From: Cyanobacteriota bacterium
Lineage (GTDB): Bacteria; Cyanobacteriota; Cyanobacteriia; Thermostichales; Thermostichaceae
Length of the DNA stretch: 62,434 bases
Direction of reading: 5' to 3'
Assembly (NCBI GenBank): GCA_033764955.1
Contig: JANRIL010000034.1
Coordinates: forward strand, 1 to 62,434
Below, piece by piece: positions 1-16,558 of the stretch. The first letter of the stretch is position 1, and each line of letters starts with the position of its first letter. The notes under the pieces were generated by a model. It had not been told where the DNA came from. It did no database searches and saw only the letters and a program-made list of their open reading frames with translations. The position numbers were made by a program, and so were the translations under genes.

Positions 1-34
1 CGTGCCTTGCATTCCACCGCGTTCATTACTTACT

Positions 35-211
35 AACAGCGTAGGCAGAGTCTAAGACTCTTTTACGTGAGGACGGAGGGAAGGAGCCTCCGGGTGCTAT
101 GCACCACTTGAAAGGGGCAACTTTTCACGTCGCACCCAAACCATTTGGATAGTGGATCCGCAATTGGCGGACTTACCCACTGGGGAATTTACCCCACCCA
201 CCCTGCGCGTT
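35..211. other. Densely structured non-coding element (candidate ssDNA promoter/origin or ncRNA leader)
   Basis: Hairpins at 47-61, 74-92, 93-105, 109-127, 136-148, 151-181, 181-196, closed by 35-45 pairing with 202-211. Confidence 0.6.
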
Positions 212-287
212 CCCCAGACCCCATCTCCCTGTGGAAAAAGGATCCGACAGTCCTGCGGAGTGGGTGAAATTGATCAAGGTGAATGAA

Positions 288-437
288 ATGTCAGATCAAC
301 AGAACGGATCGGCAGAAACCTATTACGTGGATGACGACGGGAATGTAGTGATGGCGGTGTTTACCCTCGATGAAGCGGATCCTGATTCCGGCGAGAAGCT
401 GTTCAATTTCATGACTCGTTTACTCGGAGATGATTAA
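288..437 (+). CDS. Small acidic hypothetical protein (49 aa), array gene 1
   Basis: ATG288 lies 21 nt after repeat 1; stop abuts repeat 2; the ORF-track start at 231 would run through the repeat. Confidence 0.65.
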   Translation: MSDQQNGSAETYYVDDDGNVVMAVFTLDEADPDSGEKLFNFMTRLLGDD

Positions 438-475
438 CAGTCCTGCGGCGTGGGTGTCGTTGTGGAGACACACTC

Positions 476-625
476 ATGCTCAATTCTCAAATTGTTGAAT
501 GTCTAATGTCACAAGCTCTGGTCTGGATTGCAGAACATTTCCCAGACTGTCAACCAGATGATGTTCCTATCTATCAAGAGGTATATGTGAACCGGATCCT
601 GATGGCGGTGGCTAATCAGTTGTAG
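476..625 (+). CDS. Small hypothetical protein (49 aa, MLNSQIVECLMSQALVWIAEHFPDCQPDDVPIYQEVYVNRILMAVANQL), array gene 2, absent from the ORF track
   Basis: GGAGA RBS and ATG476 after repeat 2; TAG 623-625 overlaps repeat 3. Confidence 0.7.
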   Translation: MLNSQIVECLMSQALVWIAEHFPDCQPDDVPIYQEVYVNRILMAVANQL

Positions 626-658
626 TCCTACGGCAGGGGTGACGTTGACGGAGAGTTT

Positions 659-1012
659 ATGCTCATCACTCATCCCTGTCGTGTAGCAGTTGTGGGATCC
701 CGCACCTACTGGGATCTCAAAGCCGTGCGGGATTTCATCACTCAGTTACCAGAGGGTTGCACTGTGATCTCAGGTGGAGCCAGAGGCGTTGACCAGACGG
801 CAGAACAAGCAGCTCGTGCCAGAGGGATCCTTGTCCAAATCTACCCAGCCGACTGGCATTAACACGGAAAGTTGGCAGGGATCCGGCGTAACCACGACAT
901 TGTCCAATCTGCCGATGTAATCGTCGCCTTCTGGGACGGATCCAGCCCTGGCACCGCCCACAGCATTCAGCTTGCCAAGTCCATGAATAAACCTATCCAG
1001 ATCATTTACTGA
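659..1012 (+). pseudogene. SLOG/YspA-like (DUF2493) protein with in-frame TAA at 860-862
   Basis: VVGSR and SGGARGVD motifs; after the stop the frame continues HGKLAGIRRNHDIV...AFWDGSSPGTAHSI to TGA 1010-1012. Confidence 0.8.
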
Positions 1013-1051
1013 CAAGTCCTACGGCATGGGTGCAGAGAAGGAGCATTCACA

Positions 1052-1372
1052 ATGTCTAATTCACAAAAAATCGCACAACTAAATGACGAGTTCCGCAAGC
1101 CTCAGAGTGCCTACATTGTCATCACACCAATGGTGCAATCACTGGGATCCCAAGTCTCAGACCTACTCCAGCTAGTCAGACAGTTTAATGTCTTTAATGA
1201 AGACAATGATCCTTATGAAGAACATGACTTTGGATCCATTGACTATAATGGAGAAACCTACTTTTGGAAGATAGATTATTACGATAAAAGTTTGAAATAT
1301 CTCTCTCCAAATCCAGCAGATCCAAGTCTGACCAAAAGAGTCCTAACAGTAATGCATTCAAGTGAATACTAG
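1052..1372 (+). CDS. DUF3768-family protein
   Basis: IAQLNDEFR, NDPYEEHDFG, FWKIDYYD and TKRVLTVM motifs; AAGGAG RBS. Confidence 0.8.
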   Translation: MSNSQKIAQLNDEFRKPQSAYIVITPMVQSLGSQVSDLLQLVRQFNVFNEDNDPYEEHDFGSIDYNGETYFWKIDYYDKSLKYLSPNPADPSLTKRVLTVMHSSEY

Positions 1373-1407
1373 TCCTGCGGAATGGGTGTCGTTAAGAGGG
1401 CTAAATC

Positions 1408-1839
1408 ATGATGACTAAAGAGAAAATGTTGTACTCTCGCACTGCTGCCAGCCGGATCCTGGGAGTCATGCCTCATCACGTTCAGATCCAAGTCTAGCCT
1501 AGAGTTGTGTTGGCTCAGGTAAAGGGATCCCGTCCCCGCTTCCTGTCTCGAAAAACCTTCCACCAAGACTTTGTGGAAACTCGTAGATCTGCTGCGATGG
1601 ATCTGCATTGTAAGCTAATTTACCCAGGTAGATATGCCGTTTTCAATTCAGAGAATGGACATCAGCATCAAGTCTTACTCCATGATTCTGGATTACATTG
1701 CACTTGTGATGATTATCAAAATCAGAAAGCTTTCTTTAAGCAGGCTTGTTGTAAGCATTGTTACGCTGTTCTGTTTGCTAATGGTTATCAAAATTTGCGA
1801 GAATATATCAATGCAAAACACTCAAAATTCGTTGGCTAG
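1408..1839 (+). pseudogene. SWIM zinc-finger protein with in-frame TAG at 1495-1497
   Basis: ATG1408 after repeat 5 is in frame with ORF 1507-1839; CTCDDY...CKHC SWIM motif. Confidence 0.7.
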
Positions 1840-1890
1840 ATTAGTCCTTTCGTATGGATGAATTGTCGTTTCTCAAAAGGAGAAATTATC

Positions 1891-2418
1891 ATGTTTGTGA
1901 ATGCGTTTACTACCCCTGATCTAAAAGGGATCACCTACATTCCTGGTCGCCCCTGTCAGTATCGTGCTGACTGTAAATCTGGTGTGTTCAAAATTGGCGA
2001 ATCTAAGTTTGTCGGATCCACATTGGCAATGGAAATCCTATCTTGGCGCACCTTTGAAGACCAACTCTTTGACTATCCCCATCAGACTTGGTTGGAAATT
2101 CTGTTTGTGGATCCGCGTAATGTCGTGAGCCATGTCCTCTTCAAGACCCAGAGCCTGGACAACTTCCTCGATTTCATGCTGGATCTGGCCTCACAAGGCA
2201 AAGCCGTCGGAGAAGGGGTGACTACCGCCAGAATGTCCAAACGCTCAGGAGATCTGGGTGTCTACTATGCCGTCGAGTGTGAGTGGAAGGAATCTGACAA
2301 AAAACGAGTGACCGAGCTGCAAGCCTTTGCCAGTGAGCAGGATCTCTATGCATCCCGCTTAGCGGATGTCCGGCAGCTCAAAGATGCTGGAGCACAGCCG
2401 TTGGAACTGCCTGCATAG
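1891..2418 (+). CDS. Hypothetical protein, last array gene (possibly SSB/OB-fold-like)
   Basis: AAGGAG RBS and ATG1891 after repeat 6; fold is inference only. Confidence 0.65.
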   Translation: MFVNAFTTPDLKGITYIPGRPCQYRADCKSGVFKIGESKFVGSTLAMEILSWRTFEDQLFDYPHQTWLEILFVDPRNVVSHVLFKTQSLDNFLDFMLDLASQGKAVGEGVTTARMSKRSGDLGVYYAVECEWKESDKKRVTELQAFASEQDLYASRLADVRQLKDAGAQPLELPA

Positions 2419-2425
2419 ATTGATT

Positions 2426-2458
2426 GGGGATCCTCATGTGAAGGGGATCCCTTTTCTT
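2426..2458 (+). terminator. Intrinsic terminator closing the array
   Basis: Stem GGGATCCTC/GGGGATCCC followed by TTTTCTT. Confidence 0.65.
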
Positions 2459-2530
2459 GGTCGCCCTACCGCCTGGTGAGGTAGTGTACCAGGCTCCACC
2501 CCGACACCCCACCCACCATGAAACTCTCCA

Positions 2531-5500
2531 TCATGCGGCTGCTTTAGATCGCACCTCTTGAAGAATTTGGACGAGCTGCTTTACCTCAGCAGGAAGGAAC
2601 AAACCGCTAACCCCTTGATCGTCAAGATCAGTGAAGGGACTTTCGTATAGGCGACGGGGATCTATCACACCCTGCTCTGTTAGGTGCTCAATAATCAAGT
2701 CGATAAATTCGATTTGGTTAGCATTTAAGTTCTTGCCATTCATAAAGGTGGATAAAGCCTGTTTTGCTGCTTCACGATCTAATCCTAACAGTGTGCGAAT
2801 AAATAACCCTAGTCCGCCATCGGTGGATCGAATTGTCTCAAGTTCCTCAGTGCTGGCCACACCCTCATCCAGAAAGATCCGCTCTAGTTCAGAGAGATCA
2901 AGAGGTGTTAGTTGCTGGTTTAGCTTAAGTTTCTGAATAGTGATGTGATTTTCGTGTTGGGTAAGAAAGTGACGTACTTTTCTCATGAATCGGGCTTTAT
3001 CAGTACCATTAGAAACGGCAGGGAGATTGATTGTGATCGCTTGGCCTATCTCATCCTCAAAATCGGTATAGACAATCTTACGACTCTCAAAGGTAATCAA
3101 TTTAACTAAGGAACGTAGATGAATTCTTACTTGTTCCAGGATGGGTAGAGTGATATCTTGCCAAAAATCATCGGTTAAGATCTCCAGGATCAGCTCCAAT
3201 TTAGAGGCGACCATCGGAATATTTCCTAATTCTGAAAGTTGTAACGCAACGGTCTTAATTCGCTCTTGATATCGGATAAGACTGGGATCCCTATGCAGCA
3301 GAGCAAGCTGAGATTGAAGTACCACATAATCAAACTGTCTGGCAGTTAGATCGTCGTCGTCTAGAGAGCTAGGTAAACCTGCAATGTGTTCGGTTAGTTC
3401 GGTGCGTTCTATTGAACCTAATTGCTCCCATGTTTGTGGAGTCTGAAATTTTTCGACGAGCCGACGTTTCGGCCTGACGATGAAGTTTTCTAGACTCATA
3501 CCTGCTATTTCTTGATGGAGACGCTCGGCAATTTCTTGTTGCAACGGGAGCAGGGTATCGTTAGCCGCTTTTTCGATTTCATCTAGCAGTGTAACGCGAG
3601 CAGTAAAGAGCTTTTTAGCCAAAGATGGCCCTAAGGCTTTATCGGCAATGGCGGGATTTTGGTTAAAAAACTCGAAGTTTTGGCAGAAGTCAAATACTAA
3701 GAAATCTTCTTTGTGCCGATCAGGACCAAATAAGTTTTGGCAGAGGCGAGTACCGCGCCCGATCATCTGCCAGAATTTGGTTTTTGAGCGGACGATCTTG
3801 AAGAAGACCAAGTTGACCACTTCCGGTACATCAATACCCGTGTCGAGCATATCGACGGAGATGGCTATATGAGGAGCTTTGGCTGGAATGGAGAAATCAT
3901 CGATCAGAGATTGGGCATATTCCACCTTGTTGTCGATGACACGGGCAAAATGTCCTTTTAGGTGGGGGTAGTTGGCATCGAACCGTTGGGCAATGAATTC
4001 GGCATGGTTGTGGTTTTTGGCAAAGATAATTGTTTTACCCAGTCGATCACCTTCATCGACTTTTAAGCCGTTGGTCATGACATGCTCAAGCACTTTATCA
4101 ACAGTATCGATGTTGAATAGCCAATCATTGAGGGCAGAAGCCTCGACTTGATCCGGTACATTGCCATCCTCAGACCAATCCAGGGCATCCCATTCTGACT
4201 TTTCTTCATCAGATAAGTCGTCATACCGGATCCCTTCCCGTTGGAACTTCAGCGGCACTGAGATGGCTTTGGGAGGAACCAGAAACCCATCAGCGACCGC
4301 TTGATCGAGATCGTAGGAATCGGTGGGAACACCGCTCTCTAGCTCAAAGAGGGAATAGGTATCGCGGTCGATCTCGGTGCGAGGGGTGGCGGTCAGCCCT
4401 ACCAGTAGGCAATCAAAATACTCAAAGATAGAGCGATATTTCCGGTATACGGAACGGTGGGCTTCATCAATCACCAGCAGATCAAAATGACCGGATCCAA
4501 AGCGGCGTTGACCATTCTGCATCTCGTCGATCAGACTCACCATCGTTGGATAGGTGGAGACATAGATGCGGCCTTCTGTAGCTTTTTCCGTGACCAGATT
4601 GACGGGCGCTGTCTGGGGTAAGTGGGTTTTGAAGGCGTTCACGGCTTGTTTGACTAATGCCACCCGATCCGCTAGGAAGAGGGCGCGTTTTACCCAGTTG
4701 GCTCGCATCAATTGATCGATCAGGGCGATTACGGTGCGGGTCTTTCCGGATCCGGTGGCCATGACCAGGAGCGCCTTACGGAGATTATCTTTCTCAAAGG
4801 CTTCGCCAATTCTTCGGATGGCACGGGTCTGGTAATAGCGACCGACGATGCTAGTGTCGATGTCAGTAGACCCTAAGGATTTTTTAGTGGTGCGACGTTG
4901 ATGCAATAACATCAGTTCGTCTTTTTTGAGAAAGCCTTGTATGGGTCGGGGCGGGTAAGTCACATCATCCCAGAGCCAATGTTCATAGCCATTGGTGTAG
5001 AAGATGATCGGTCGTTGACCGAATTGCTGCTCCAAGCAGTCGGCGTAGAGCTTGGCCTGTTGTTTACCCGCACGCGGATCCCGTTGAGTGCGTTTGGCTT
5101 CGATCAAGGCGAGGGGTTTGCCGTCGTTACCCCAGAGGACGTAATCTACATAGCCCTCTCCGGTTTGATTGGGCATACCTGTGACAGGGAATTCCCGATC
5201 TCGGGGTTGGTTAAGCGGCCAGCCTGCCTCATTCAACAACAAGTCGATAAAGAGGTCGCGGGTTTGGGCTTCGTTGTAGTCGTGGTTATCGGGTGCGGAC
5301 TGGTTGGCTTGTTTGACGGCGGCAATTTCGGCTTGTAGGCGTTGGATCTCGGCTTCTAGTTGGGCGCGTTGCTGTTCGGTTTGGATCTGGGCTGCTTCGG
5401 CTTGTTGCTGAGCTTTAGCTTGGTTTTCGTAATCTTTGGCGATAGTCTGCAATCGCTTAAGGGTGGTGGCTGCTACTTGGGTGGTTTGGGGTAGGGCTTC

Positions 5501-5911
5501 CTGACTAAATTGATAACCTGATTCCGGTTTGGATCCTGTGGCATAGGAGCGCACCAACCAATAGCTAACATGAAACAGTTCTCGTAGGGCGTTGATGGCC
5601 GTTTGGGTGGTGACTGGGCGGGAATCATGCACGGCACGGTTGCCTAAGTCTTTGATCACCTTGGTTTTAGCCAGGAGTGATTGACCCACGACCGCTATGA
5701 AAGTTGGCTCGTGGATCAGGGCGGATAGGTTATTGTCATAGGGCTTGCGTAGGGATCTGTCGTGTTCATACATCCAGTTGATCGCGGTTTCTAAGGCGAA
5801 GCGGGCATAGAAACAGGCGGCACGCGGATCCGATAGGGCAAGGGTTTCGGCACGTCGGGCGTGCTCAAATACAGAAGTAAATTCGGGTTGGAGAAAGGAG
5901 AATTGGCTCAT
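2531..5911 (-). CDS. hsdR: Type I restriction enzyme R subunit (EcoKI/EcoAI-like, N-terminal DUF4145)
   Basis: DYVL...IEAK nuclease motif, MATGSGKT, DEAHRS, QMIGRGTR. Confidence 0.95.
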   Translation of the reverse strand: MSQFSFLQPEFTSVFEHARRAETLALSDPRAACFYARFALETAINWMYEHDRSLRKPYDNNLSALIHEPTFIAVVGQSLLAKTKVIKDLGNRAVHDSRPVTTQTAINALRELFHVSYWLVRSYATGSKPESGYQFSQEALPQTTQVAATTLKRLQTIAKDYENQAKAQQQAEAAQIQTEQQRAQLEAEIQRLQAEIAAVKQANQSAPDNHDYNEAQTRDLFIDLLLNEAGWPLNQPRDREFPVTGMPNQTGEGYVDYVLWGNDGKPLALIEAKRTQRDPRAGKQQAKLYADCLEQQFGQRPIIFYTNGYEHWLWDDVTYPPRPIQGFLKKDELMLLHQRRTTKKSLGSTDIDTSIVGRYYQTRAIRRIGEAFEKDNLRKALLVMATGSGKTRTVIALIDQLMRANWVKRALFLADRVALVKQAVNAFKTHLPQTAPVNLVTEKATEGRIYVSTYPTMVSLIDEMQNGQRRFGSGHFDLLVIDEAHRSVYRKYRSIFEYFDCLLVGLTATPRTEIDRDTYSLFELESGVPTDSYDLDQAVADGFLVPPKAISVPLKFQREGIRYDDLSDEEKSEWDALDWSEDGNVPDQVEASALNDWLFNIDTVDKVLEHVMTNGLKVDEGDRLGKTIIFAKNHNHAEFIAQRFDANYPHLKGHFARVIDNKVEYAQSLIDDFSIPAKAPHIAISVDMLDTGIDVPEVVNLVFFKIVRSKTKFWQMIGRGTRLCQNLFGPDRHKEDFLVFDFCQNFEFFNQNPAIADKALGPSLAKKLFTARVTLLDEIEKAANDTLLPLQQEIAERLHQEIAGMSLENFIVRPKRRLVEKFQTPQTWEQLGSIERTELTEHIAGLPSSLDDDDLTARQFDYVVLQSQLALLHRDPSLIRYQERIKTVALQLSELGNIPMVASKLELILEILTDDFWQDITLPILEQVRIHLRSLVKLITFESRKIVYTDFEDEIGQAITINLPAVSNGTDKARFMRKVRHFLTQHENHITIQKLKLNQQLTPLDLSELERIFLDEGVASTEELETIRSTDGGLGLFIRTLLGLDREAAKQALSTFMNGKNLNANQIEFIDLIIEHLTEQGVIDPRRLYESPFTDLDDQGVSGLFLPAEVKQLVQILQEVRSKAAA

Positions 5912-7095
5912 AGGTGAACCTCATCGGTGCCTGGAACTGGATCACTGAATAACTTAATGTAGGGCGCATATTGAAAGCGTCTGTTGCGTGCGTAGCCAGT
6001 CATCTCGATAAGCACACCCAGATCTGCCAGCTTCGATACCAGTGTATTGGCTGCTGAATAAGTGGTGCCAGTTAAGCTCTGTACGTCACTTACAGTTACA
6101 ATCGGTCGATCAAATAAGAACTCCAAAACCTTGTGCCCATTGCCAGAAGCACGTCCTAACTTTTCAGTGATGGCACTGCGATGTTGTTCACGCAGTATCA
6201 GAATCCGTCTAGCCGTTTCTGCTGCCTCACCAGCGATACTGACCACCCCTTGCAAGAAGAACTTTAGCCATGCTTCCCATTCACCGTAGTCACGCACGGA
6301 CTGTAGGTGTTCATAGTAGGTTTGTCGATGCTGCTTGAAGTAGTGTGACAAGTACAGCACAGGCTTATGCAGCACACCGCGTTCAGTCAGCAAAAAAGTA
6401 ATAAGTAGCCGCCCGACCCGTCCATTGCCGTCTAGAAAAGGATGAATAGTCTCAAACTGGACATGAGCCAGTGCGATCTTCACCAGCGGCGGCAGACTAT
6501 CCTTGTTATGCAGGAAGGTCTCTAGCTCACCCAATATTCTGGGAACTTCGTGGTGTGGCGGTGGTACGAAAATAGCAGTATTCAGGGTGCATCCCGACGG
6601 GCCGATCCAATTCTGGGTTGCACGCAGTTCTCCAGGTTGGAGTTGACCGCCTCTGACACCCTTTAACAACTCTGCATGGATTTCACGGATCAGCCGCACA
6701 GAAACTGGAAGAGTGGCTAGCCGATCTAGCCCATAGTTCATTGCACGGACGTAATTGACCACTTCATCCACATCTCGAGGGAGTTCGTGGTCGAATAATT
6801 GGGCTTCGGCGGCCAGCAAGTCTTGGAGCGAGCTTTGCGTTCCTTCGATCTGGCTGGAGAGAACCGCCTCTTTGCGCACATACATGAAGACGAAGAGATC
6901 AGGGTTTGGCAGGGTCAACACAGATCCATCCAGTCGCCCGATAGCTCGGTCGGCATCGGACAGCAAACCCGCCAGTTCTCCACCTAGATCCAATGCGGGA
7001 ATGGGTGGCAGGGGTGCGGGCATAAAGGCGCGGTAGCCCAGGGATTGACTAATGTATCTACCTGCTCGGTTGGAGGCCGTGGCGTTGCCTTCCAT
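5908..7095 (-). CDS. Fic-family protein with C-terminal HTH-like region
   Basis: HPFLDGNGRVGR Fic motif; SSQIEG inhibitory motif. Confidence 0.93.
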   Translation of the reverse strand: MEGNATASNRAGRYISQSLGYRAFMPAPLPPIPALDLGGELAGLLSDADRAIGRLDGSVLTLPNPDLFVFMYVRKEAVLSSQIEGTQSSLQDLLAAEAQLFDHELPRDVDEVVNYVRAMNYGLDRLATLPVSVRLIREIHAELLKGVRGGQLQPGELRATQNWIGPSGCTLNTAIFVPPPHHEVPRILGELETFLHNKDSLPPLVKIALAHVQFETIHPFLDGNGRVGRLLITFLLTERGVLHKPVLYLSHYFKQHRQTYYEHLQSVRDYGEWEAWLKFFLQGVVSIAGEAAETARRILILREQHRSAITEKLGRASGNGHKVLEFLFDRPIVTVSDVQSLTGTTYSAANTLVSKLADLGVLIEMTGYARNRRFQYAPYIKLFSDPVPGTDEVHL

Positions 7096-7158
7096 ACTAT
7101 GGGCTGCCTTGCATATGGGCTGAAAATCCTTCCATATTATAGGCTGCCTTGCATATGG
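7088..7158. promoter_or_regulatory. Tandem 31-bp direct repeat containing four CCTT(C/G)CATA boxes over the fic start; probable operator
   Basis: 7088-7118 vs 7128-7158 differ at 2 positions; boxes at 7088, 7107, 7128, 7147. Confidence 0.55.
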
Positions 7159-7284
7159 AACGGATCCGTCGCCATATTATAGTTTTGGCAGATGTAGTCA
7201 AAGCCTGTCTTTGCGCCAAAGAGAATATCTCGAAAGACGTGGTTGATAAATTCTTATTGAATAATTGAAAATTCTCTCTTGTCA

Positions 7285-7773
7285 TCACTTAGAAAGTTGG
7301 TGATAGTTTTTTAGATCTTGATCGAGAGCCCAAATGAATACTTCACTCATCGGAAAACGTATACATAATTTATTGAATTCTTCGATGATGCTGAGATCGC
7401 CAAAACTAGTTCCTTCTTGTTTATTAGGAGCTTTGTTTTGACCAGCTCGGTCAGGGAATCCGTCGATCCACTCTAATATTTCAGTCGTGTTGGGGAATGG
7501 AGTTGGTGACCAAGGAGCTGTACCCTGAAATGAGTTTTTTACAGTATCAACAAAACGCCTAGCAGCTTGCCTTCGCATTGTGCCATTACCATTCTGGGCT
7601 ATGTGATTACCTGTTTCAAGAATGGTAGCCATAGGCAGTAAAAAAGTGCACCCTAGATCAATATACTCTCGAAAATCTTGTAATACTATAGCTTTGTCTT
7701 GAGTGAAGTTTGGAACCTCAAGAAGGATAAGGAATATACTGGTATCAATGAGACAGATGCTAGTCATTGACAT
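7285..7773 (-). CDS. PIN-domain-like protein
   Basis: Acidic residues in PIN spacing: IDTS, ILETGNH, GDLSI, LDQDL; overlaps the ATPase stop. Confidence 0.7.
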   Translation of the reverse strand: MSMTSICLIDTSIFLILLEVPNFTQDKAIVLQDFREYIDLGCTFLLPMATILETGNHIAQNGNGTMRRQAARRFVDTVKNSFQGTAPWSPTPFPNTTEILEWIDGFPDRAGQNKAPNKQEGTSFGDLSIIEEFNKLCIRFPMSEVFIWALDQDLKNYHQLSK

Positions 7774-9073
7774 TATCCTGCAACTGAGTTAGCCAAGCTA
7801 GAGCTAGCTGTTTCTTCACTTCAGACGTGTGTGGCGATTTGATAAACCGATCTACAATTCCAGCAGTTACTAATTGACCCAATGCTCCTTGCGAGATCAG
7901 GCTGGGAAATTCTGGTAAGTCGCTGAGTCGGATAAGTCGGCTGTTTCCTGTTTGCGGATCGCGGTAGCAAAACACGACATCGCTAAGAGATTCGTCGGGT
8001 AAGGCATCCATGAGGGCAGGATTATGCGTGGAGAGCAAAACACGCAATTTACGCTGTTCAGCGATCTTTTGGATGCTGGCAAGTAAATGTTTTGCTCGAC
8101 TGGGGTGAACGCCGTTGTCAATTTCTTCGATGACAACAAGACTACCTTCGGTAGCGGATAGCATGGCGGCAGCAATCGCTAATACTCGCAGGGTGCCATC
8201 GGATAACAAAGCAGCTTCACAGGGACGTTGCTGGTTGCCAAAGGTTTCAGTGAGCCTAACCATTACTTCGTCCCTGGGGCCTTCGATGAAATCTAATCCC
8301 TCGATAGATTGTTCTGGTAAACTCTGGATAAAGTTGAGAATCGCCTGTTGGTTTTCAGTCTGCTTTTGCCAAAGACGGTACAGTACACTAGATAGATTTG
8401 TGCCATCTTCTTGTAGGCGTTTGTCAGACTTAAAGCTGTACTCTCGCATTTGAGCAGGAACAGGATCCAGAAATAGAATGTTTTGCAATACTCGCTGATA
8501 TTCCCTCACAGTTTCAGGGATAGCTCTCTGAGATTCCTTATATTTCTCTCCAAAGCGGGCGGGGCTATCTAGCTGCACAAATACACCCATTTGATCGCTG
8601 CATATTATTTGAGGTTTATTCTTGCCTTTAGTAAAATTATTATAGGCAACATTTATGTCTGTATTTACTCCTTGAGATGGTTGAGTGATTTGATAGAGAG
8701 GAATGGGAGCATTTTCTCCAGAGATTTTTTCATTAGAGATATGTATTTCTCCATCCCGAACGCTTAGCGTTATTTCTAGATAATTCCATTCGAGCGTATC
8801 AATGTAGCAACCGATGGTAAAGCTAGATTGCCCTCGATGGCATAGATCACTTACTCGTCCACGGACTACGCGATCGGCACGATTAACTGCATATTGAATG
8901 CTACTCAGTTTTTGCCCTTGGGCTAGCCAAGATAAGAAACGTAAGCCTTCGATAGCATTACTTTTGCCAGAAGCATTGGCTCCAATGAGTATTGTCAGTG
9001 ATCCCAGGGGTAATCGGCTGGAGTCATAGCTTTTGAAATTGGCAATCGTAAATTCTGTAAGTACAGTAGTCAT
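7760..9073 (-). CDS. Soluble ABC-type (AAA_15/AAA_21-like) ATPase
   Basis: NFKS, Walker A GANASGKS, signature LSDGT, Walker B VIEEID, H-loop STHN. Confidence 0.9.
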   Translation of the reverse strand: MTTVLTEFTIANFKSYDSSRLPLGSLTILIGANASGKSNAIEGLRFLSWLAQGQKLSSIQYAVNRADRVVRGRVSDLCHRGQSSFTIGCYIDTLEWNYLEITLSVRDGEIHISNEKISGENAPIPLYQITQPSQGVNTDINVAYNNFTKGKNKPQIICSDQMGVFVQLDSPARFGEKYKESQRAIPETVREYQRVLQNILFLDPVPAQMREYSFKSDKRLQEDGTNLSSVLYRLWQKQTENQQAILNFIQSLPEQSIEGLDFIEGPRDEVMVRLTETFGNQQRPCEAALLSDGTLRVLAIAAAMLSATEGSLVVIEEIDNGVHPSRAKHLLASIQKIAEQRKLRVLLSTHNPALMDALPDESLSDVVFCYRDPQTGNSRLIRLSDLPEFPSLISQGALGQLVTAGIVDRFIKSPHTSEVKKQLALAWLTQLQDNVND

Positions 9074-10240
9074 TTATAACTCTCCTTGGAAGGCGAGGTG
9101 TTGTAGGGACGAGAAGAGCTTATCTAGTTCGGCTAAGGAGCTATAAAAAGAACTTTTCTGCTTTTCAATAACTTCTACTCGTCGGGTAAACTCTTGCTGG
9201 AGAGGAAGAGGGGGGATCAGGATTGGTATCTTCCCCAATCCATCAGAGTCTAAGCGCTTGGTTCCATGGGCAGACTCAGAGACCTGCTGAAGAGCAAAAT
9301 TAGCCTCTGCTCTTAGACAAGCTGCGAGAAACTGTGGTTCTAAAGGCTCTCTAGGTAGCAGCGCTTTAATATCTTGATTAATAGTGGCCGGAATCTTAAT
9401 AGTGCTAACAGGAAAAGTATGAGCAAGGATCATACCTCGAACAACAATGACTACAGTATTTGCGGGGAGCAAATTAATAGTTGTTTTTTGAAGAACGTTC
9501 TCATTGATATGATCTTGGGAGTCGAATAAATCATTTGCTTTTAGGTCTTTAGGGCTAAACCAAGGGAGCGATCCCTTCCAAAATTCATCATTACTTTTTG
9601 AAGGTGTTCCACCACTGGAACAATGACAGGATTGGATTAAGGATTTGGTTGCCCACCCCATCGGATTCGTCACCGGATCCCCAAACATCTCATAGAAGAT
9701 CGCTTGCCCCAACTGGTTAAGTCGGTCTATGGATCCCTGGCGCAGGCGGCGAAGGGCATCGGCCTGATCGAGGATCGCCGCAATCCGCTTCTGCTCGTCG
9801 AGAGGGGGGAGGGGAACTTGAAGATTTCTTAGGTCTCCAAGAGAGACAAACTTTTGAGTTCCTCCTCTTTTTGAAACCTTAACAGCCTTCTCAAATAGCG
9901 GACTTGATAAAAATGCATGAATATAATTCATACAGACGGGTTGGGTATTTCTCTTGATTAGAGCAACATTTTTTATTGCATAATCAGGCTCTTCAGTTAT
10001 GAATACTGGTGATCCAATTGTTCCAATCATTGGCATGACAATGTCACCCATATCCACTTTTGATCTTTTATTGATTTCATCATAATCATGTTTTGATATT
10101 TTTCTTGCTCCTTCATATGAAACTTTTCCTGAAGAAAAGTTCTTTGAGGTTAGCAAATAAAATCCATTCTCAACATATTGTGGAGAAGCATGGGTTCCAT
10201 CTCTAACATCACAAAGTTCCCCAAGAGGCTTAGTTTTCAT
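9074..10240 (-). CDS. hsdS: Type I R-M specificity subunit
   Basis: Two TRDs with conserved PLPPLDEQKRIAAILD and PPLPLQQEF regions. Confidence 0.95.
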   Translation of the reverse strand: MKTKPLGELCDVRDGTHASPQYVENGFYLLTSKNFSSGKVSYEGARKISKHDYDEINKRSKVDMGDIVMPMIGTIGSPVFITEEPDYAIKNVALIKRNTQPVCMNYIHAFLSSPLFEKAVKVSKRGGTQKFVSLGDLRNLQVPLPPLDEQKRIAAILDQADALRRLRQGSIDRLNQLGQAIFYEMFGDPVTNPMGWATKSLIQSCHCSSGGTPSKSNDEFWKGSLPWFSPKDLKANDLFDSQDHINENVLQKTTINLLPANTVVIVVRGMILAHTFPVSTIKIPATINQDIKALLPREPLEPQFLAACLRAEANFALQQVSESAHGTKRLDSDGLGKIPILIPPLPLQQEFTRRVEVIEKQKSSFYSSLAELDKLFSSLQHLAFQGEL

Positions 10241-10251
10241 CCCAGCATCTC

Positions 10252-10719
10252 CTATACACTATCCATATTAGGATTGCTTCTTTTTGCTATATTAAATTGG
10301 TTAGGTAATAGCTCGAGTTGAGCGAGTGTTTTACGCACAGGCAGATACTCCTCACGATTCATTCGCAATAACTTTACAGTCACCCGTCCAATTGCTGTTA
10401 GAGGCTGTATCATCCCATTCTCTTGCTCAAAGTAAAAATGTTCAACCCAACTATCTTTTCTAGGGTTAAACAATCTCACTGTATCACCAGATTCAGGATC
10501 AATCGAAGCAATATCGCTACCCTTAGCTTGATTACATAATGCACAAGATATCGCTAGATTTTCTGGATCCGTTACGCCACCATGTTTTTCGGCGATAATA
10601 TGATCAATCTGATGAGTAGATAAAACAACCATTTCAGAAATCAAGCAATACTCACAATAACCCTCAGCACGATCAAATACAGCTTGTCGCAAAGCACTAG
10701 AAATATAGGTCTTACTCAT
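10252..10719 (-). CDS. HNH endonuclease
   Basis: CEYC, IDHII...HGG, NL...CALCN...KG; 4-bp overlap with the upstream gene. Confidence 0.9.
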   Translation of the reverse strand: MSKTYISSALRQAVFDRAEGYCEYCLISEMVVLSTHQIDHIIAEKHGGVTDPENLAISCALCNQAKGSDIASIDPESGDTVRLFNPRKDSWVEHFYFEQENGMIQPLTAIGRVTVKLLRMNREEYLPVRKTLAQLELLPNQFNIAKRSNPNMDSV

Positions 10720-11072
10720 GTGCCTTGTTGCAACTTTAACAGTGCCTGAGCCTTAGCCAACCGCACCAGATGCTCAACAAACTCATAATGCTGCCACAAC
10801 AACCGCTCACTGTCATCCAAGCCTTGAGTCCGATTTTTATCTAGCAAAGCATCAATGTCAGCTTGAACCTCAGAAGATAAACGCAAAGCTAAGATCTCTT
10901 TTGGAGATGGTAACTTAGCCAAAAACTCTAAAATCTCAGTCAAACCCGAAAAACTCAATGATGGATTTGCATCAAGTTGCCGCAGACCTAAAGCTAAGAT
11001 TTGGGGTAGATTCTCTTTGCGAGACTCTAAACTCTTAACCATTTCATCCGGTATATCTAACATCATTTTCAT
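10716..11072 (-). CDS. Hypothetical protein coupled to the HNH gene (possible antitoxin)
   Basis: ATGA overlap with HNH; intact ORF. Confidence 0.7.
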   Translation of the reverse strand: MKMMLDIPDEMVKSLESRKENLPQILALGLRQLDANPSLSFSGLTEILEFLAKLPSPKEILALRLSSEVQADIDALLDKNRTQGLDDSERLLWQHYEFVEHLVRLAKAQALLKLQQGT

Positions 11073-11094
11073 GTCTGATTCTCAGAGAAATAAC

Positions 11095-11388
11095 TTATGG
11101 GATAACGACTTCAGCCAAAACACGATCACGGATCCGAGCCTTCAGTCCATTCTTAGTAACAATATCTACCTTAAGACCAAATAGATCACTCAAATAGTCT
11201 CTAAGCTCTACTAACATCACAAAAGTAGGCGCAATCTCATAGTCTACCAAAATATCAACATCACTCTCCTCAGTCTGCTCCCCTCTCGCATAAGAGCCAA
11301 ATACACCTAACTCCGTGATTTGATACTTTTCACACAGATCCCTTTTTTGTGCCACTAAAACTTGCCTAATTTCGTTCAGCGTTTTCAT
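11095..11388 (-). CDS. Minimal nucleotidyltransferase (MNT) family protein
   Basis: FGSYARG...SDVDILV motif; 97 aa. Confidence 0.9.
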   Translation of the reverse strand: MKTLNEIRQVLVAQKRDLCEKYQITELGVFGSYARGEQTEESDVDILVDYEIAPTFVMLVELRDYLSDLFGLKVDIVTKNGLKARIRDRVLAEVVIP

Positions 11389-11394
11389 AACACC

Positions 11395-12936
11395 TCATCT
11401 CAGCATTTCCTCTAATATGCCTAAACCGCTAGCGATCTCCTCTTCCAAAGCCCTCAACTCCCGAATGATATCCATCGGATCCTCATGATGTTGCTCCTCA
11501 TGCTCAACCTGTTTATAGCGATTCAGCGACAGATCATAGGTGCCAGTAAGAGCGATCTCTGTTTTGGGTACACAAAAGCTCTGAGCAGTGCGTGGACTGT
11601 TGCGCTCTAGCCCGTCTCTTTCTCTCCAACGCTTCAGTACATCAGGAAGGTTATTTTTGCTGTGCTCTTCATCGTTGAGGGCTTCTATTGGCACTGAACC
11701 GAGCTTTTCGACTGGCAACAACTCAGAACGCTTATCATCCAGCGAATACCCATCCGCCTGCACATCATAAAACCAAACCTGATCAGTGCCACCCACACCA
11801 GTCTTGGTAAAAAAGAGGATCGCCGTCGAAACCCCCGCATAGGGGCGGAAAACACCAGATGGCAGTTTGACCACCGCATCTAGCTTGTGTTCTTCCACTA
11901 GCATCCGGCGAATCTGTTGGTGAGCCTTAGAGGATCCGAAAAGCACACCATCCGGCACGATCACCGCCGCCCGTCCCCCAGTTTTGAGCAGCCGCAGGAA
12001 CAACGCCACAAAAAGCAGCTCCGTCTTCTTGGTCTTGACAATTTGCTGTAAATCTTTGGCGGTTGCCTCGTAATCCAGGGATCCGGCAAAAGGTGGATTA
12101 GCAAGAATCAGCGAATAGGTGCCAGCATCAGCAGTATGATCCTGCGCCAAACTATCCCGATAACTAACATCAGGATTATCCACCCCGTGCAGCGTCATAT
12201 TCATGGATCCGATCCGTAGCATCGTCGGGTCGAAGTCAAACCCATGAAACATCCGGTTATGAAAATGCCTGCGCTGCTTCTCATCCCGAAAAAGCTGAGG
12301 GAAATTAACTCGCAGATATTCCCCCGCCGCCACCAAAAAACCACAGGTACCCGCCGCCGGATCACAGATCACATCCTCAGGAGTGGGTTGGGTCAACTCC
12401 ACCATCAACCGGATGATGTGGCGCGGTGTGCGAAACTGCCCATTTTGTCCAGCACTGGCAATCTTACCGAGCATGTACTCATAGAGGTCGCCCTTCGTGT
12501 CCCGGTCTTCCATCGGGATCTTGTCCAGCATCTCCACAGTCTTAGCCAGCAAAGCAGCATTGCTGAAACCTAGCCGTGCATCCTTCATATGCTGCCCGAA
12601 GCTGGATCCCTTTTCCCCCATAGTTCTCAGGAAGGGAAAGACCCGCTCATCCACCACCTGCATCATTTCGCGAGGCTCAAAGTTCTTGAAGCGTGACCAC
12701 CGCAGATCCGAGTAAGGGCGACCCTTCTCATCTAGACCATCTGGGAAAATACGCCGTTCCATCGGGATACCCAGAGTCTCAGCTTTGCTTTCCTCAAGGG
12801 TGTGCAGGTCGTCCAGCCGCTTGATAAAGAGTAGAAACGTGATCTGCTCAATCACCGATAACGGATTAGACACTCCCCCAGACCAGAAGGCATTCCAGAT
12901 CTGATCCACCTGATTGCGAATTTCACCCGTTAGCAA
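11395..12936 (-). CDS. hsdM: Type I R-M N6-adenine methyltransferase
   Basis: GQFRTP, DPAAGTCGF, NPPF; probable TTG start at 12936 after GAGGAG. Confidence 0.95.
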   Translation of the reverse strand: MLTGEIRNQVDQIWNAFWSGGVSNPLSVIEQITFLLFIKRLDDLHTLEESKAETLGIPMERRIFPDGLDEKGRPYSDLRWSRFKNFEPREMMQVVDERVFPFLRTMGEKGSSFGQHMKDARLGFSNAALLAKTVEMLDKIPMEDRDTKGDLYEYMLGKIASAGQNGQFRTPRHIIRLMVELTQPTPEDVICDPAAGTCGFLVAAGEYLRVNFPQLFRDEKQRRHFHNRMFHGFDFDPTMLRIGSMNMTLHGVDNPDVSYRDSLAQDHTADAGTYSLILANPPFAGSLDYEATAKDLQQIVKTKKTELLFVALFLRLLKTGGRAAVIVPDGVLFGSSKAHQQIRRMLVEEHKLDAVVKLPSGVFRPYAGVSTAILFFTKTGVGGTDQVWFYDVQADGYSLDDKRSELLPVEKLGSVPIEALNDEEHSKNNLPDVLKRWRERDGLERNSPRTAQSFCVPKTEIALTGTYDLSLNRYKQVEHEEQHHEDPMDIIRELRALEEEIASGLGILEEMLR

Positions 12937-13406
12937 TGTACAACACTCCTCTCTTGCATACTTCGCCAAATCCACACACGCTGGCTGTATCGTCATTATG
13001 CCAAAGACCGAGAGTGAGCCATCTGAAGTTAGACAGGATCTACACCCAGCACTCCCACAGACCCATGCGAGACGGTACGGTAGCAGGAAAAGAGTTTTAC
13101 TCCCCCAGTCACCCCTCTAATCCATGCTCACAGAATCAGGAAAAGTCATCAGCACCATCCTGAAACACGACACTAAAGTAATCATCTACAAAATCGCTCT
13201 GCTCAGATCCATCAATGATGTCGTGCTCTCCTTCCTGGATCTCCGGTAGGTTTGGGTACAAGTGCATAGATCTTCTAGACTCAAGTAACGCCCAACGTTC
13301 TCCATGCTGGCTTCCTAATCTCATCACAACCTTATCAATCAAAGCCGACGCAATTTGGTTGATGACTAAGCCACAGCTATGAGACGATTTCAACGGATTC
13401 CCGCCT

Positions 13407-14306
13407 GTGACCCGCTTTCGCCACGATCGTTTCGCGAAATCCTTTCTGGCTGACTTACTCGAACCTCTGGGTCAAGTGGAAGTCAGCCGAGAGGTCACCG
13501 ATGAAGCTCGTGAGATTGATCTGTATTTCACCCCTGCCCCAGGACAGGATCCGCAATCCTTGGGTCTATTGGGTCGCATGGTTCTATCCCCCTGCCTGCT
13601 GGAACCCTTCCGTAATCCGGTTGACCGAGACGGGATCCGTTCCTGTATCGCCAAACAGTTTGTGATTTACAGCGAGCTGCAACGGCAAACAAAATCTGGT
13701 GACTCCCCACCCCAGATCCCTTTCCTGTGGATCCTGACTCCCACCGCTTCCCCGGAGATCCTAACCGACTGCGGGGGATCCCTCAACCTCGACACTTGGA
13801 TGGAAGGAATTTACTTTTTACCCACACTCTTGAGAACTGCCCTCGTTGTCATCCATCTACTGCCCAGGCGATCCGATACCCTGTGGTTAAGGCTGCTGGG
13901 TCGAAATAGATTCCAACAGCAAGCAATCCAAGAATTGTCAGACCTACCATCGGGAGATCCGGTGGGTCAAAATGTACTCAGAAGGCTGTACAACCTGAAA
14001 ATCGCATTGTCCACCGAACCAGATCTCTTGGAAGAAGAAAGGGAGTTTCTCATGAACCTGTCACCCGCCTACCTCAAATGGGAAGAGGAGACTATTGGCA
14101 AAGCCAAGCTAGAGGGTAAGGAAGAAGAAGCATTATCTCTGATTTCCCGACTGGTCGTCCGCCGATTTGGAAAGCTTACCCCGGCTGCCCAAACTCAGCT
14201 CCAGACATTGACTGTCGATCAGCTTGAAGAACTGGGACTCGCCTTATTCGATTTTTCCAGTCAATCAGACTTAATCACCTGGTTACAAAAATTCAGCCAT
14301 GAGTAA
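13407..14306 (+). CDS. Rpn-like/DUF4351 cyanobacterial hypothetical protein
   Basis: HDRFAK...REIDLYF...LLEPFRN; C-terminal QLEELGLALFDFSSQSDLITWL (DUF4351-like). Confidence 0.75.
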   Translation: MTRFRHDRFAKSFLADLLEPLGQVEVSREVTDEAREIDLYFTPAPGQDPQSLGLLGRMVLSPCLLEPFRNPVDRDGIRSCIAKQFVIYSELQRQTKSGDSPPQIPFLWILTPTASPEILTDCGGSLNLDTWMEGIYFLPTLLRTALVVIHLLPRRSDTLWLRLLGRNRFQQQAIQELSDLPSGDPVGQNVLRRLYNLKIALSTEPDLLEEEREFLMNLSPAYLKWEEETIGKAKLEGKEEEALSLISRLVVRRFGKLTPAAQTQLQTLTVDQLEELGLALFDFSSQSDLITWLQKFSHE

Positions 14307-16331: not shown

Positions 16332-16558
16332 GGATCCTCAGCCCGCTCAACGACAATTCGATTTCTAGGATGCAAAATTCCCAGCCTTTACTGGCTGGAT
16401 TGTTCCTTTAGCTCAGATGCTCTATCCGTTGCTGAAGTTCCTCCGATTGTGGGGGCGCTAAATGTTAGCGTGGGAGGAATGGGGCTGGTTGCTGGAATGG
16501 ATAGTCCCTCACATGCAAAAGATATTCGCTTGTTTTGGTCGTTTAGAGATGGGCAGGC

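Follow-up and report, generated by a model that had tools for sequence, protein, structure and literature searches.

An asymmetric 18-nt motif under purifying selection precedes nearly all genes of a phage-derived island in a cyanobacterium and resembles phage regulatory sites

Background

A row of six small genes near the start of a cyanobacterial contig, each preceded by a similar 18-nucleotide sequence, raises the question of what a short repeat does when it stands before every gene of an operon. The contig (JANRIL010000034.1 of NCBI GenBank assembly GCA_033764955.1, from a member of the Thermostichaceae) was analysed over a stretch of 62,434 nucleotides, referred to here as the window. A sequence-only reading of it had proposed recombination sites for cassette shuffling, per-gene RNA or translation elements, or operators, within a candidate cassette or establishment system. 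Few regulatory signals of phages can be recognised from sequence alone; repeated asymmetric sequences ahead of genes belong to these, and among such repeats only the stoperators of mycobacteriophages have a solved mechanism.

Results

The motif array and its genes

The motif AGTCCTRCGG-N3-GGGTG (18 nt) occurs six times between positions 249 and 1860 of the window, all on the plus strand (Table 1). Scanning with the pattern AGTCCTN7GGRTG gave 6 matches in the window compared to a mean of 0.06 and a largest count of 1 across 100 shuffles, which confirms the six copies claimed earlier. The tight spacing described with them was also confirmed: as read from the sequence, copies 2 to 6 lie 1 nt beyond the previous stop, across it, 2 nt beyond, across it and 3 nt beyond, respectively, and copies 1 to 6 end 21, 19, 17, 19, 19 and 30 nt before a start codon, with GGAG, GAGG or GGTG at 6–12 nt ahead of each ATG. 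The sixth copy is indeed the most degenerate, which had been taken as a sign of array growth at one end; since all four orthologous arrays (the window, island copies A and B and the second genome, G013) share this degeneracy, it is uninformative on that point. Across positions 1 to 2700 of the window, neither the motifs nor the leader (136..248) showed a sigma-70-like site, and a single terminator-like hairpin follows the last gene, so that the array is probably read as one transcription unit punctuated by the sites.

Table 1. Features at the left end of the window
Feature	Position	Strand	Remarks
Probable group II intron 5′ end	1..135	−	Interrupts this island copy, breaks the assembly
Leader of six-gene operon	136..248	+	Aligns with A, B and partly G013; C-rich box 193–202
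Motif copy 1	249..266	+	First in operon, without upstream gene
49a, 49-aa orphan	288..437	+	No family match; conserved in A, B and G013
Motif copy 2	439..456	+	
49b, 49-aa orphan	476..625	+	No family match
Motif copy 3	624..641	+	Overlaps TAG stop of 49b
YAcAr/SLOG (DprA-like) gene	659..1012	+	Pfam YAcAr 5.6e-11 on first piece; in-frame TAA 860–862
Motif copy 4	1015..1032	+	
DUF3768 gene, 106 aa	1052..1372	+	Pfam PF12599 1.3e-33
Motif copy 5	1371..1388	+	Overlaps TAG stop of DUF3768 gene
SWIM-like zinc-finger gene	1408..1839	+	In-frame TAG 1495–1497
Motif copy 6	1843..1860	+	Degenerate: 3′ box lost, 5′ box kept, ATG 30 nt away
OB-fold, SSB-like protein, 175 aa	1891..2418	+	T4 gp32 / phiC31 RDF-like fold by model
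Terminator-like hairpin with T-run	2426..2452	+	Sole one in window 1–2700; ends operon
Conserved right end of island	2453..2522	+	Runs to ATG of variable next gene, truncated here; A/B homology stops at 2522

Four of the gene assignments made earlier (two 49-aa unknowns, SLOG and DUF3768) held, while the SWIM assignment is weak, with an E value of 0.04 and 13.9 bits against a 19.6-bit cutoff and a CxC...CxH pattern recognized by eye, and the SSB-like assignment comes from a structural model. The SLOG and SWIM genes of the window each carry an in-frame stop that the earlier reading had overlooked, where the paralogues have sense codons. The SLOG codon at 860–862 is CAA in A, B and G013, the gene is intact in copy A (117 aa), and 860 T>C is seen in 3/3 and 2/2 covering metagenomic contigs. 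Likewise, the SWIM codon at 1495–1497 is TGG in relatives, the gene is intact in A, B and G013 (136–143 aa), and 1496 A>G is seen in 2/2 and 1/1 metagenomic contigs. The AF2 model of the 175-aa protein (pLDDT 82.9) aligned by VIA-align to 9teh_I (Z 8.1), to T4 gp32 (Z 6.3) and to many OB folds of SSB and RPA proteins (Z 4–5); Foldseek gave weak matches (best E 0.014). Homologues of this protein at 50–73% identity occur in other cyanobacteria, and in three viral contigs the gene following the homologue looks like an exonuclease, judging from its N-terminal sequence read by eye. The model of the SWIM protein (pLDDT 53.7) was too poor for use, a protein atlas search with the 140-aa and 94-aa island proteins gave no usable lead, and a literature search for the term "DUF3768" found no paper.

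A phage-derived island in several diverged copies

The array is part of a phage-derived island of 5–7 kb, of which three to four diverged copies are present in this genome (82–87% identity between copies) and at least one, with the same array and motifs, in a sister genus. The island consists of two co-oriented operons with a motif module before almost every gene, and its gene set is of the recombination or early type, namely Gp157, YAcAr/SLOG, DUF3768, SWIM-like, OB-fold SSB-like and small orphan genes. This chromosomal context replaces the establishment system suggested before. Restriction-modification, SNF2-helicase and CRISPR-Cas loci are the island's neighbours, and in contig C11 a remnant copy, also followed by the 70 nt of the right end, directly adjoins a cas3 locus. 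About 5 kb upstream of copy B is a gene for a CI-like repressor (HTH_3 plus Peptidase_S24); the scanned flank ORFs of copy A and of the window's copy included no repressor-like gene.

The first bases of the window are probably the end of an intron. Homology to paralogue A begins only at position 136, and the left half of the window's island copy, with its upstream genes, is found at the end of contig C25, where Rfam matched Intron_gpII (L004 16849–16926, minus strand, 59.5 bits). An Rfam scan covering A, B and the part on C25 returned, at the gathering score, a tRNA and the group II intron only.

Conservation and specificity of the motif

Given the several island copies, the motif could be compared across 34 occurrences from six loci, where it stands ahead of about ten unrelated gene families, including Sipho_Gp157, YAcAr/SLOG, DUF3768, SWIM-like, OB-fold SSB-like and several orphans. 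All 34 lie on the coding strand, in intergenic space or at the end of a gene, and the motif before a 53-aa gene is located within the upstream coding sequence. The distance from motif end to start is 17–21 nt in 30 copies and 30 nt in the other four, and the Shine-Dalgarno (SD) sequence is an element separate from the motif. Genome-wide, 17 of 20 strict matches fall within island copies, and the remaining three are about what chance would give by our own estimate (roughly 3–4).

Positions 2–5, 10, 17 and 18 are invariant in 34/34 copies. At each of the eight fixed positions (GTCCT, G10 and TG), 0 of 48 orthologous pairs differ, compared to 0.31–0.52 in the N3 spacer and 0.23–0.52 in the flanking columns, and position 7 shows solely A↔G changes, in at least four orthologous groups. 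That fixed positions alternate with free ones speaks for selection and against gene conversion. About 12 bp, close to one turn of the helix, lie between the centres of the two boxes, and an extra base separates the boxes in the orthologous copies of B and C11 before Gp157. In these alignments, which cover two genomes only (this genome and G013), the motif is seen to be under base-specific purifying selection, strand-specific, start-proximal and island-specific, and it is the conserved core of a gene-start module of about 40 nt made up of a stop, the motif, 17–21 nt with the SD, and ATG. Neither of the outcomes that the sequence-only reading had named as contrary to it, a fixed gene order with an unconserved motif in homologous loci or a common genome-wide repeat, was found.

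Gene order and the recombination reading

All four full arrays (the window, two in contig C14, and G013; two genomes) hold the same six genes in the same order, at odds with the expectation that content and order would vary by whole units. No integrase or recombinase family was found by Pfam among selected ORFs flanking A, B, the window's copy with its C25 part, and C11 (22 and 26 proteins), and the flank ORFs covered showed neither the integron tyrosine recombinase IntI nor attI. Cassette shuffling as the main role is thus not supported by the fixed order, the absence of attC-like structure and the lack of a recombinase in the scanned flanks; one hint points the other way. The flanks upstream of the Gp157 motif in A, C25 and B/C11 are unrelated (54–60% identity, background 57.7 ± 2.8), identity downstream of it is 72–77%, and it is precisely at the motif that the island copies become homologous. 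This would be expected if the 40-nt modules served as short homologies for gene swap, insertion or excision, as in the PeSL (promoter-early stem-loop) cassettes of T4-type phages or in integron cassettes, possibly with the island's own recombination proteins, among which Gp157 and the SSB-like protein are encoded. Also in keeping with such boundaries are an additional motif-preceded 67-aa gene in copy B, outside the shared region, a mosaic of per-unit identities (49b of the window is 91% identical to G013 and 84% to A, while the other units of the window are nearest A) and the precedent of the PeSL cassettes (PMC2839356). Phage DNA is, however, expected to show mosaic junctions at gene boundaries irrespective of any role of the motif, and the alternation of invariant with free positions indicates sequence-specific recognition and not mere homology. 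We regard a role as recombination boundary as quite improbable.

Possible RNA-level recognition

The alternatives of a per-gene RNA or translation element and of an operator, both raised earlier, are each compatible with base-specific selection, strand specificity and proximity to the start; structure and 16S rRNA complementarity were not found. RNAalifold placed 0 consensus pairs in the 34 aligned modules, with no attC-like or stem-loop structure, and the weak stem said to be possible in every copy was possible in 89.7% of cells with 0 compensatory changes. The fold of a leader-motif hairpin (window 136–300) was not significant (z = −1.25), and complementarity to 16S rRNA was no better than that of shuffled sequences (−19.1 vs −19.7 ± 2.0 kcal/mol). 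An antisense partner was sought in the assembled genome with wobble allowed, and of 23 complement matches 12 were the motif's own opposite strand and 11 were scattered, the latter near the chance level (about 7 by our estimate). A same-sense match of 9/10 to 16S position 304 was also seen and is most likely due to chance, with about 1 in 8 as our estimate for some rRNA site.

It is possible, at a low probability, that reading of the motif takes place on the mRNA, within an extended translation-initiation region (positions −37 to −20), where the ribosome, or an RNA-binding factor of the host or the island, would set, activate or shut translation or processing for each cistron. The near-constant distance to the start is not needed by a DNA operator, and an mRNA-level or promoter role fits it at least as well, although it may also result from how closely stop, site, SD and ATG are packed. 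Placement on the coding strand is strict, the SD lies between motif and start, and the motif moves with the downstream gene: genes that open an operon have it too, and ahead of the 53-aa gene it falls within the coding sequence upstream. A 1-nt change in box spacing is tolerated, and A→G and C→T changes predominate at positions 7 and 8. A precedent for one orientation before unrelated non-structural gene starts is offered by the start-associated sequences (SAS) of cluster K mycobacteriophages (PMC3203893). Against this reading stand the missing conserved structure, 16S complementarity and antisense partner described above, and the sixth unit, which retains its 5′ box though the start is 30 nt off. 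The motif is also G+C-rich, unlike the A/U-rich enhancers that are known.

A possible dedicated promoter

A further candidate role is that of a promoter read by a helper-phage RNA polymerase or by an unrecognised sigma-like or activator protein, giving each gene its own start site and a leader of about 20 nt as in the multi-promoter early and middle regions of T7-type phages. An asymmetric 18-nt sequence at a constant distance before SD and ATG, with a run of G at its end, would suit this role, as would an operon for which no sigma-70-type promoter was found and island copies whose homology sets in precisely at the first motif. We nonetheless consider it unlikely. The polymerase family PF00940 had 0 matches in this genome, which is 89% complete (a weak result, as the control matched in no reference genome), and the island proteins scanned included no member of a sigma family. 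In IMG/VR, an exact-pattern scan returned 89 stretches with a single match each, none clustered within about 600 nt. Three central positions of the motif are free, and one-base spacing variants occur.

Searches for related arrays

A metagenome scan with a two-motif pattern returned at least 156 stretches. Among the matches listed, a single unrelated CRISPR repeat of 37 nt, present in arrays, accounted for 125 of 135 loci; the remaining 10 comprised collagen-like repeats, tandem repeats and fortuitous pairs, so that no related array was among them. That a CRISPR repeat fits the pattern in most listed matches, and that a remnant island copy adjoins cas3, could suggest that the motif mimics a solitary repeat unit as a decoy for Cas proteins. 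This reading is close to refuted: the likeness was imposed by the search pattern, with agreement at 2/4 of the pattern-free motif positions, the 5′ half of the 37-nt repeat's hairpin is absent from the motif, and the three CRISPR repeats of this genome are unlike it.

Around relatives of the DUF3768 gene (79 genome and 44 viral loci, all at ≤57% identity), no motif was found within 3 substitutions, a looser pattern gave 8 scattered matches, and three cyanobacterial DUF3768 loci held no other repeat with at least 4 copies. The 140-aa and SLOG proteins had no relative in IMG/VR or one at ≤41% identity, and in a phylum sample of 401 genomes the 175-aa query found, outside this genome, just distant relatives (25–35% identity). 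The motif was found at none of the other Gp157 genes of G013, at least two of which adjoin an SSB-like gene. Contigs of one sediment sample gave short relatives of the window only, with no joints, and in one of them the sequence before position 641 was unrelated to the window.

A proposed stoperator-like operator

The reading that we favour, tentatively and with less than even confidence, is a DNA-level, stoperator-like operator. One putative sequence-specific trans-acting factor would act on every cistron through the motif; occupying every one of the short intergenic sites, which all face the same way with respect to transcription, it would silence the early or recombination operon in a resident island, and its release would turn all island genes on together. 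In stoperator systems of the cluster A mycobacteriophage type, the element encodes an immunity repressor with an HTH and a second DNA-binding domain, which blocks initiation at the early promoter and elongation at the sites in an orientation-dependent manner. The CI-like protein encoded upstream of copy B is a candidate trans regulator. Seven small core-island proteins matched no DNA-binding family at E ≤ 5, the other core genes having been scanned at stricter thresholds. An operator role is weakened in that none of the motif copies was seen to overlap a promoter, as true operator sites do, and the 1-base variant in box spacing (B and C11) should be badly tolerated by a rigid DNA binder that spans two grooves.

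Discussion

The best reading of the motif is that of a selected, asymmetric recognition site for a putative trans-acting factor, with its closest likeness in the stoperators or start-associated sequences of mycobacteriophages. A broader version of this, which is improbable in our view, would make the motif an address label: a putative factor encoded by the island, such as the SWIM-like protein or a small orphan, would read the 18-mer on DNA or RNA, the genes placed behind the 40-nt module would join one switchable programme, and the island's recombination proteins would swap genes between copies. If true, this would amount to a portable punctuation-and-regulation module for cyanobacterial counter-defence genes, one without a described factor family and with copies beside defence loci. 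If the motif is instead an ordinary operator, it would be a modest extension of a known theme. The array appears to be a clean cyanobacterial example of repeated pre-gene sites, and the several diverged island copies are natural replicates. Finding the factor would provide a compact multi-gene control switch for cyanobacteria and a handle on an island family with SLOG, DUF3768 and SSB-like genes beside defence loci.

Several known systems share part of this arrangement. As in integron cassettes, small co-oriented genes stand in a row with a repeated site between them. The attC sites of integrons, located at the 3′ end of every cassette, are imperfect inverted repeats able to fold into a hairpin; the motif, in contrast, has no inverted repeat or hairpin and lies on the 5′ side of its gene, and the gene order is fixed. 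The CUP repeats in the leading regions of IncN plasmids are upstream regulatory repeats before small genes of the anti-restriction or establishment type, much longer than the motif and comprising a promoter and an operator. The motif resembles them as a repeated upstream sequence before several small genes and differs in being 18 nt long, chromosomal and phage-derived.

Phage systems come closer. The PeSL elements of T4-type phages are, like the motif, short repeated modules between small accessory genes and at mosaic junctions (PMC2839356). They consist of a sigma-70-like promoter and a terminator stem-loop, neither of which is found at the motifs, and the array shows no unit-wise gain or loss inside it. 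The SAS and ESAS of cluster K mycobacteriophages, for which a role at the RNA level has been proposed without proof, are likewise asymmetric, restricted to their element, placed in one orientation before unrelated non-structural genes, sometimes over the upstream stop, and without hairpin support (PMC3203893). SAS are 13 bp long, occupy the position of the RBS, contain the SD and lie 3–7 bp from the start, whereas the motif lies 17–21 nt (30/34) or 30 nt (4/34) away with a separate SD and has no inverted-repeat extension.

Stoperators are asymmetric 13-mers that occupy short intergenic spaces and are oriented with transcription, each bound by a monomer with two domains in successive major grooves (PMC9283540). 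The motif resembles these L5-type immunity repressor sites of cluster A mycobacteriophages in consisting of many short, asymmetric, intergenic sites of a temperate-phage-type element in one orientation, often touching stop or start codons, and in having two half-sites about one helical turn apart. It is unlike them in its length (18 nt with a free central triplet, compared to 13 nt), its unrelated sequence, its cyanobacterial host and its setting in a small gene island rather than a complete phage. The motif is most likely a docking site for a factor that controls these genes in concert, an instance of an arrangement described before in phages and not a new system of gene shuffling.

Structure and copies of the island

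The repeat-punctuated array proposed in the sequence-only reading was real and clearly non-random, with the pattern AGTCCTN7GGRTG matching six times in the window, the start of contig C10, compared with 0.06 times in shuffled sequence, and the six motif positions given there were exact. Each motif copy either lay 0–3 nt after the preceding stop codon or overlapped it and ended 17–21 nt before an ATG (30 nt for copy 6), with GGAG, GAGG or GGTG sited 6–12 nt 5′ of the ATGs. The genes arranged in this way encode two 49-aa orphans (49a and 49b), a YAcAr/SLOG protein, a DUF3768 protein, a weakly SWIM-like protein and a 175-aa protein, followed by a single terminator-like hairpin. The SLOG and SWIM-like genes each contain an in-frame stop that had been missed earlier and, because both are sense codons in the paralogues and in all metagenomic contigs covering them, the window copy of the island is decaying.

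Genome-wide, 17 of 20 strict motif matches fell within five places, namely the window, two loci on contig C14 (copies A and B), the end of contig C25 and a remnant on C11, and the other three were singletons at about chance level. Positions 136–2522 of the window were 86.9% identical to copy A and 82.0% to copy B. Intact copy A consists of a GH108 endolysin-like gene with small membrane ORFs; a first motif-punctuated operon, in which Sipho_Gp157 (PHROG 'Mu Gam-like end protection') is followed by genes for 67 aa and 53 aa; two stand-alone genes (140 aa and 94 aa), both with a terminator-like hairpin behind them; the six-gene array; and a conserved right end that reaches as far as the ATG of a variable gene. 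As C25 ends in the 5′ portion of an island copy and then a group II intron, and the window is homologous to copy A only from 136 onward, the two contigs C25 and C10 most likely carry a single island copy, broken in two at the intron during assembly; the intron was probably the cause of the contig break, and ~360 nt lie between the end of copy-A homology and the intron match. The intron match (59.5 bits) lies after the 94-aa gene and before the array leader.

In copy B, C11 and C25, Gp157 lacks residues 36–81 of the copy-A protein and has a different C-terminal half, which ends in a motif-encoded peptide, SPTERV, and then a stop. A C-rich box resembling CTTGACCCACCCACC lies 5′ of each separate island transcription unit and could serve the island as a promoter or regulator site; its short core is common genome-wide (73 matches), and its extended contexts are island-specific. 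In 49a of copies A and B, a 24-nt in-frame, partly palindromic insertion was present that is absent from the window and from the sister-genus genome G013, and 49b of copy B alone carries another, different 24-nt insertion; these may be very small mobile inserts.

Coordinates of features in the window and related loci
Feature	Sequence	Position	Strand	Remark
Motif copies	window	249, 439, 624, 1015, 1371, 1843	+	
In-frame TAA	window	860-862		SLOG gene
In-frame TAG	window	1495-1497		SWIM-like gene
Terminator-like hairpin	window	2426-2452		3′ of last array gene
Group II intron, probable end	window	1-135	minus	
Region with group II intron match	L004 (C25)	16481-16984	minus	Rfam Intron_gpII
C-rich box	window	193-202, 2508-2517		units behind the boxes of the island as a whole: 140-aa gene, 94-aa gene, array, variable right-end gene
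C-rich box	L002 (copy A)	8630, 9503, 10424, 12761		
Variant Gp157	L001 (copy B)	12764-13096		
Variant Gp157	L003 (C11)	9277-9609		
Variant Gp157	L004 (C25)	13908-14195		
49a insertion	L002 (copy A)	10601-10624		
49a site without insertion	window	350/351		
Type I R-M cluster	window	2531-12996	minus	HsdR, Fic, AAA_21/AbiEii-like ATPase, HsdS, HNH, nucleotidyltransferase, HsdM
tRNA gene	L002 (copy A)	13509-13581	minus	
Region of the conserved pre-gene sequence	L415 (IMG/VR)	9885-10974		

Conservation of the motif and its proposed readings

Comparison across two genomes and six loci gave 34 modules, lying before about ten unrelated gene families and all on the coding strand, with ATG as the start codon in 33 and TTG in one. 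The distance from motif end to start codon was 17 nt in four copies, 18 nt in five, 19 nt in 14, 20 nt in three, 21 nt in four and 30 nt in four, the last being degenerate sites before the 175-aa gene whose degeneracy is alike in all four arrays. Positions 2–5 (GTCC), 10 (G) and 17–18 (TG) were invariant, A1, T6 and G9 nearly so. GTCCT, G10 and TG each showed no difference in 48 orthologous pairs, the central triplet differed in 31–52% of pairs and the flanking columns in 23–52%, and position 7 varied only between A and G. Since fixed and free positions interleave, the alignment indicates base-specific recognition and not hitch-hiking or gene conversion. Each motif goes with the gene downstream of it; genes that are first in an operon also carry it, and that of the 53-aa gene falls within the last part of the reading frame before it.

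Taken together, the data call for a trans-acting factor that reads, in a sequence-specific manner, an asymmetric site before every cistron. By analogy, the motif is most plausibly, though still tentatively, read as a stoperator-like DNA site, to which a trans-acting factor would bind before each cistron. Its near-constant distance from the start codon favours either an mRNA-level start-associated element, which we regard as rather unlikely, or a dedicated promoter, which seems improbable, although that distance would also follow if stop, site, SD and ATG are packed as tightly as possible. A one-base spacing variant is mild evidence against a DNA binder of rigid geometry. Among the island proteins examined, none could be identified as a DNA- or RNA-binding regulator, which weakens the DNA-site, mRNA-level and promoter models equally.

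Several other identities were rejected. RNAalifold gave no consensus pairs across the 34 modules, and the 4-bp stem earlier described for every copy was possible in 89.7% of cells, showed no compensatory change and was broken in the degenerate copies. An Rfam scan of copies A and B returned no match for the motif, complementarity to 16S rRNA did not go beyond shuffled controls, and a search of the assembled genome yielded no antisense partner. The motif is neither a sigma-70 promoter nor a terminator, and no sigma-70-like site coincided with it at any copy in the window array. It copies none of the CRISPR repeats of this genome, and its likeness to a metagenomic CRISPR repeat was imposed by the search pattern itself. 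An attC site was likewise discarded, with no recombinase family among the flank ORFs scanned.

Integron-like cassette shuffling, as first proposed, found no support because the gene order is identical in all four full arrays. Three observations are compatible with a minor recombination role, namely the start of homology between island lineages exactly at the Gp157 motif, with the 120 nt 5′ of it at background identity, the extra 67-aa gene of copy B with its own motif outside the shared region, and the mosaic per-unit identities between copies. Phage DNA, however, commonly has junctions where two genes meet. We consider a primary recombination role very unlikely.

Origin, distribution and genomic setting

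The predicted structure of the 175-aa protein (pLDDT 82.9) contains an OB-fold-like domain, and VIA-align matched it to a chain of the phiC31 integrase-RDF complex (Z 8.1), T4 gp32 (Z 6.3) and many SSB and RPA domains (Z 4–5), while Foldseek alone gave weak matches at most; on this model, the earlier guess of an SSB-like protein seems reasonable. In three viral contigs, the gene 3′ of the 175-aa homologue looks exonuclease-like by its N-terminal sequence, as read by eye. Given this OB-fold protein, Gp157 and the DprA-like SLOG protein, the island looks like an early/recombination module of a temperate phage, and not like a plasmid-establishment region. The unrelated, low-GC IMG/VR contig L415, which encodes a 175-aa homologue, has its own conserved ~25-nt sequence, SD included, directly 5′ of three consecutive small genes; modules of this kind, shared among gene starts, may be widespread in the early regions of phages.

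Among 30 genomes of the order, arrays occurred only in this genome and G013, whose array has the same six genes, order and six motifs as the window's. No further array was found near DUF3768 relatives across bacteria and IMG/VR, in a 401-genome phylum sample, in an exact-pattern scan of IMG/VR or among the matches listed from a metagenome pattern scan, where an unrelated CRISPR repeat predominated. To our knowledge, there is no earlier example in this lineage. Homologues of the 175-aa protein (50–73% identity) occur in other cyanobacteria, and close homologues of the SWIM-like protein in metagenomes. One 37-nt CRISPR repeat, very abundant in the metagenomes sampled (L286 and at least about 125 other loci), contains a stretch fitting the loose pattern, a fit that we judge coincidental.

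The right flanks of the copies are unlike one another, with a type I restriction-modification cluster directly adjoining the island in the window, an SNF2 helicase at copy B, and a WYL regulator, cas3 and a CRISPR array at the C11 remnant; the island family is sited beside defence loci. The scanned ORFs included no integrase, replication or structural gene. A tRNA gene ~450 nt past the right end of copy A could be left over from a tRNA-targeted integration event, though no integrase was among the scanned ORFs. The 8-mer GGGATCCC occurs 4915 times in the genome compared with 65 expected, a 75-fold excess, and looks like a HIP-type iterated palindrome of different sequence, the usual cyanobacterial palindrome GCGATCGC being just 1.7-fold over-represented here; GGATCC is 12-fold over-represented, with 16 occurrences in window 1–2600. 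Because GGGATCCC is also dense in the island, the island is long adapted to this lineage.

Comparison with phage systems

The closest solved precedent is the stoperators of cluster A mycobacteriophages, asymmetric sites in short intergenic spaces whose direction follows transcription and which are bound by a monomeric two-domain repressor that blocks elongation (PMC9283540). Among unsolved precedents, the start-associated sequences that cluster K phages carry come closest (PMC3203893). The motif system is a variation on this known phage theme, seen in just two genomes.
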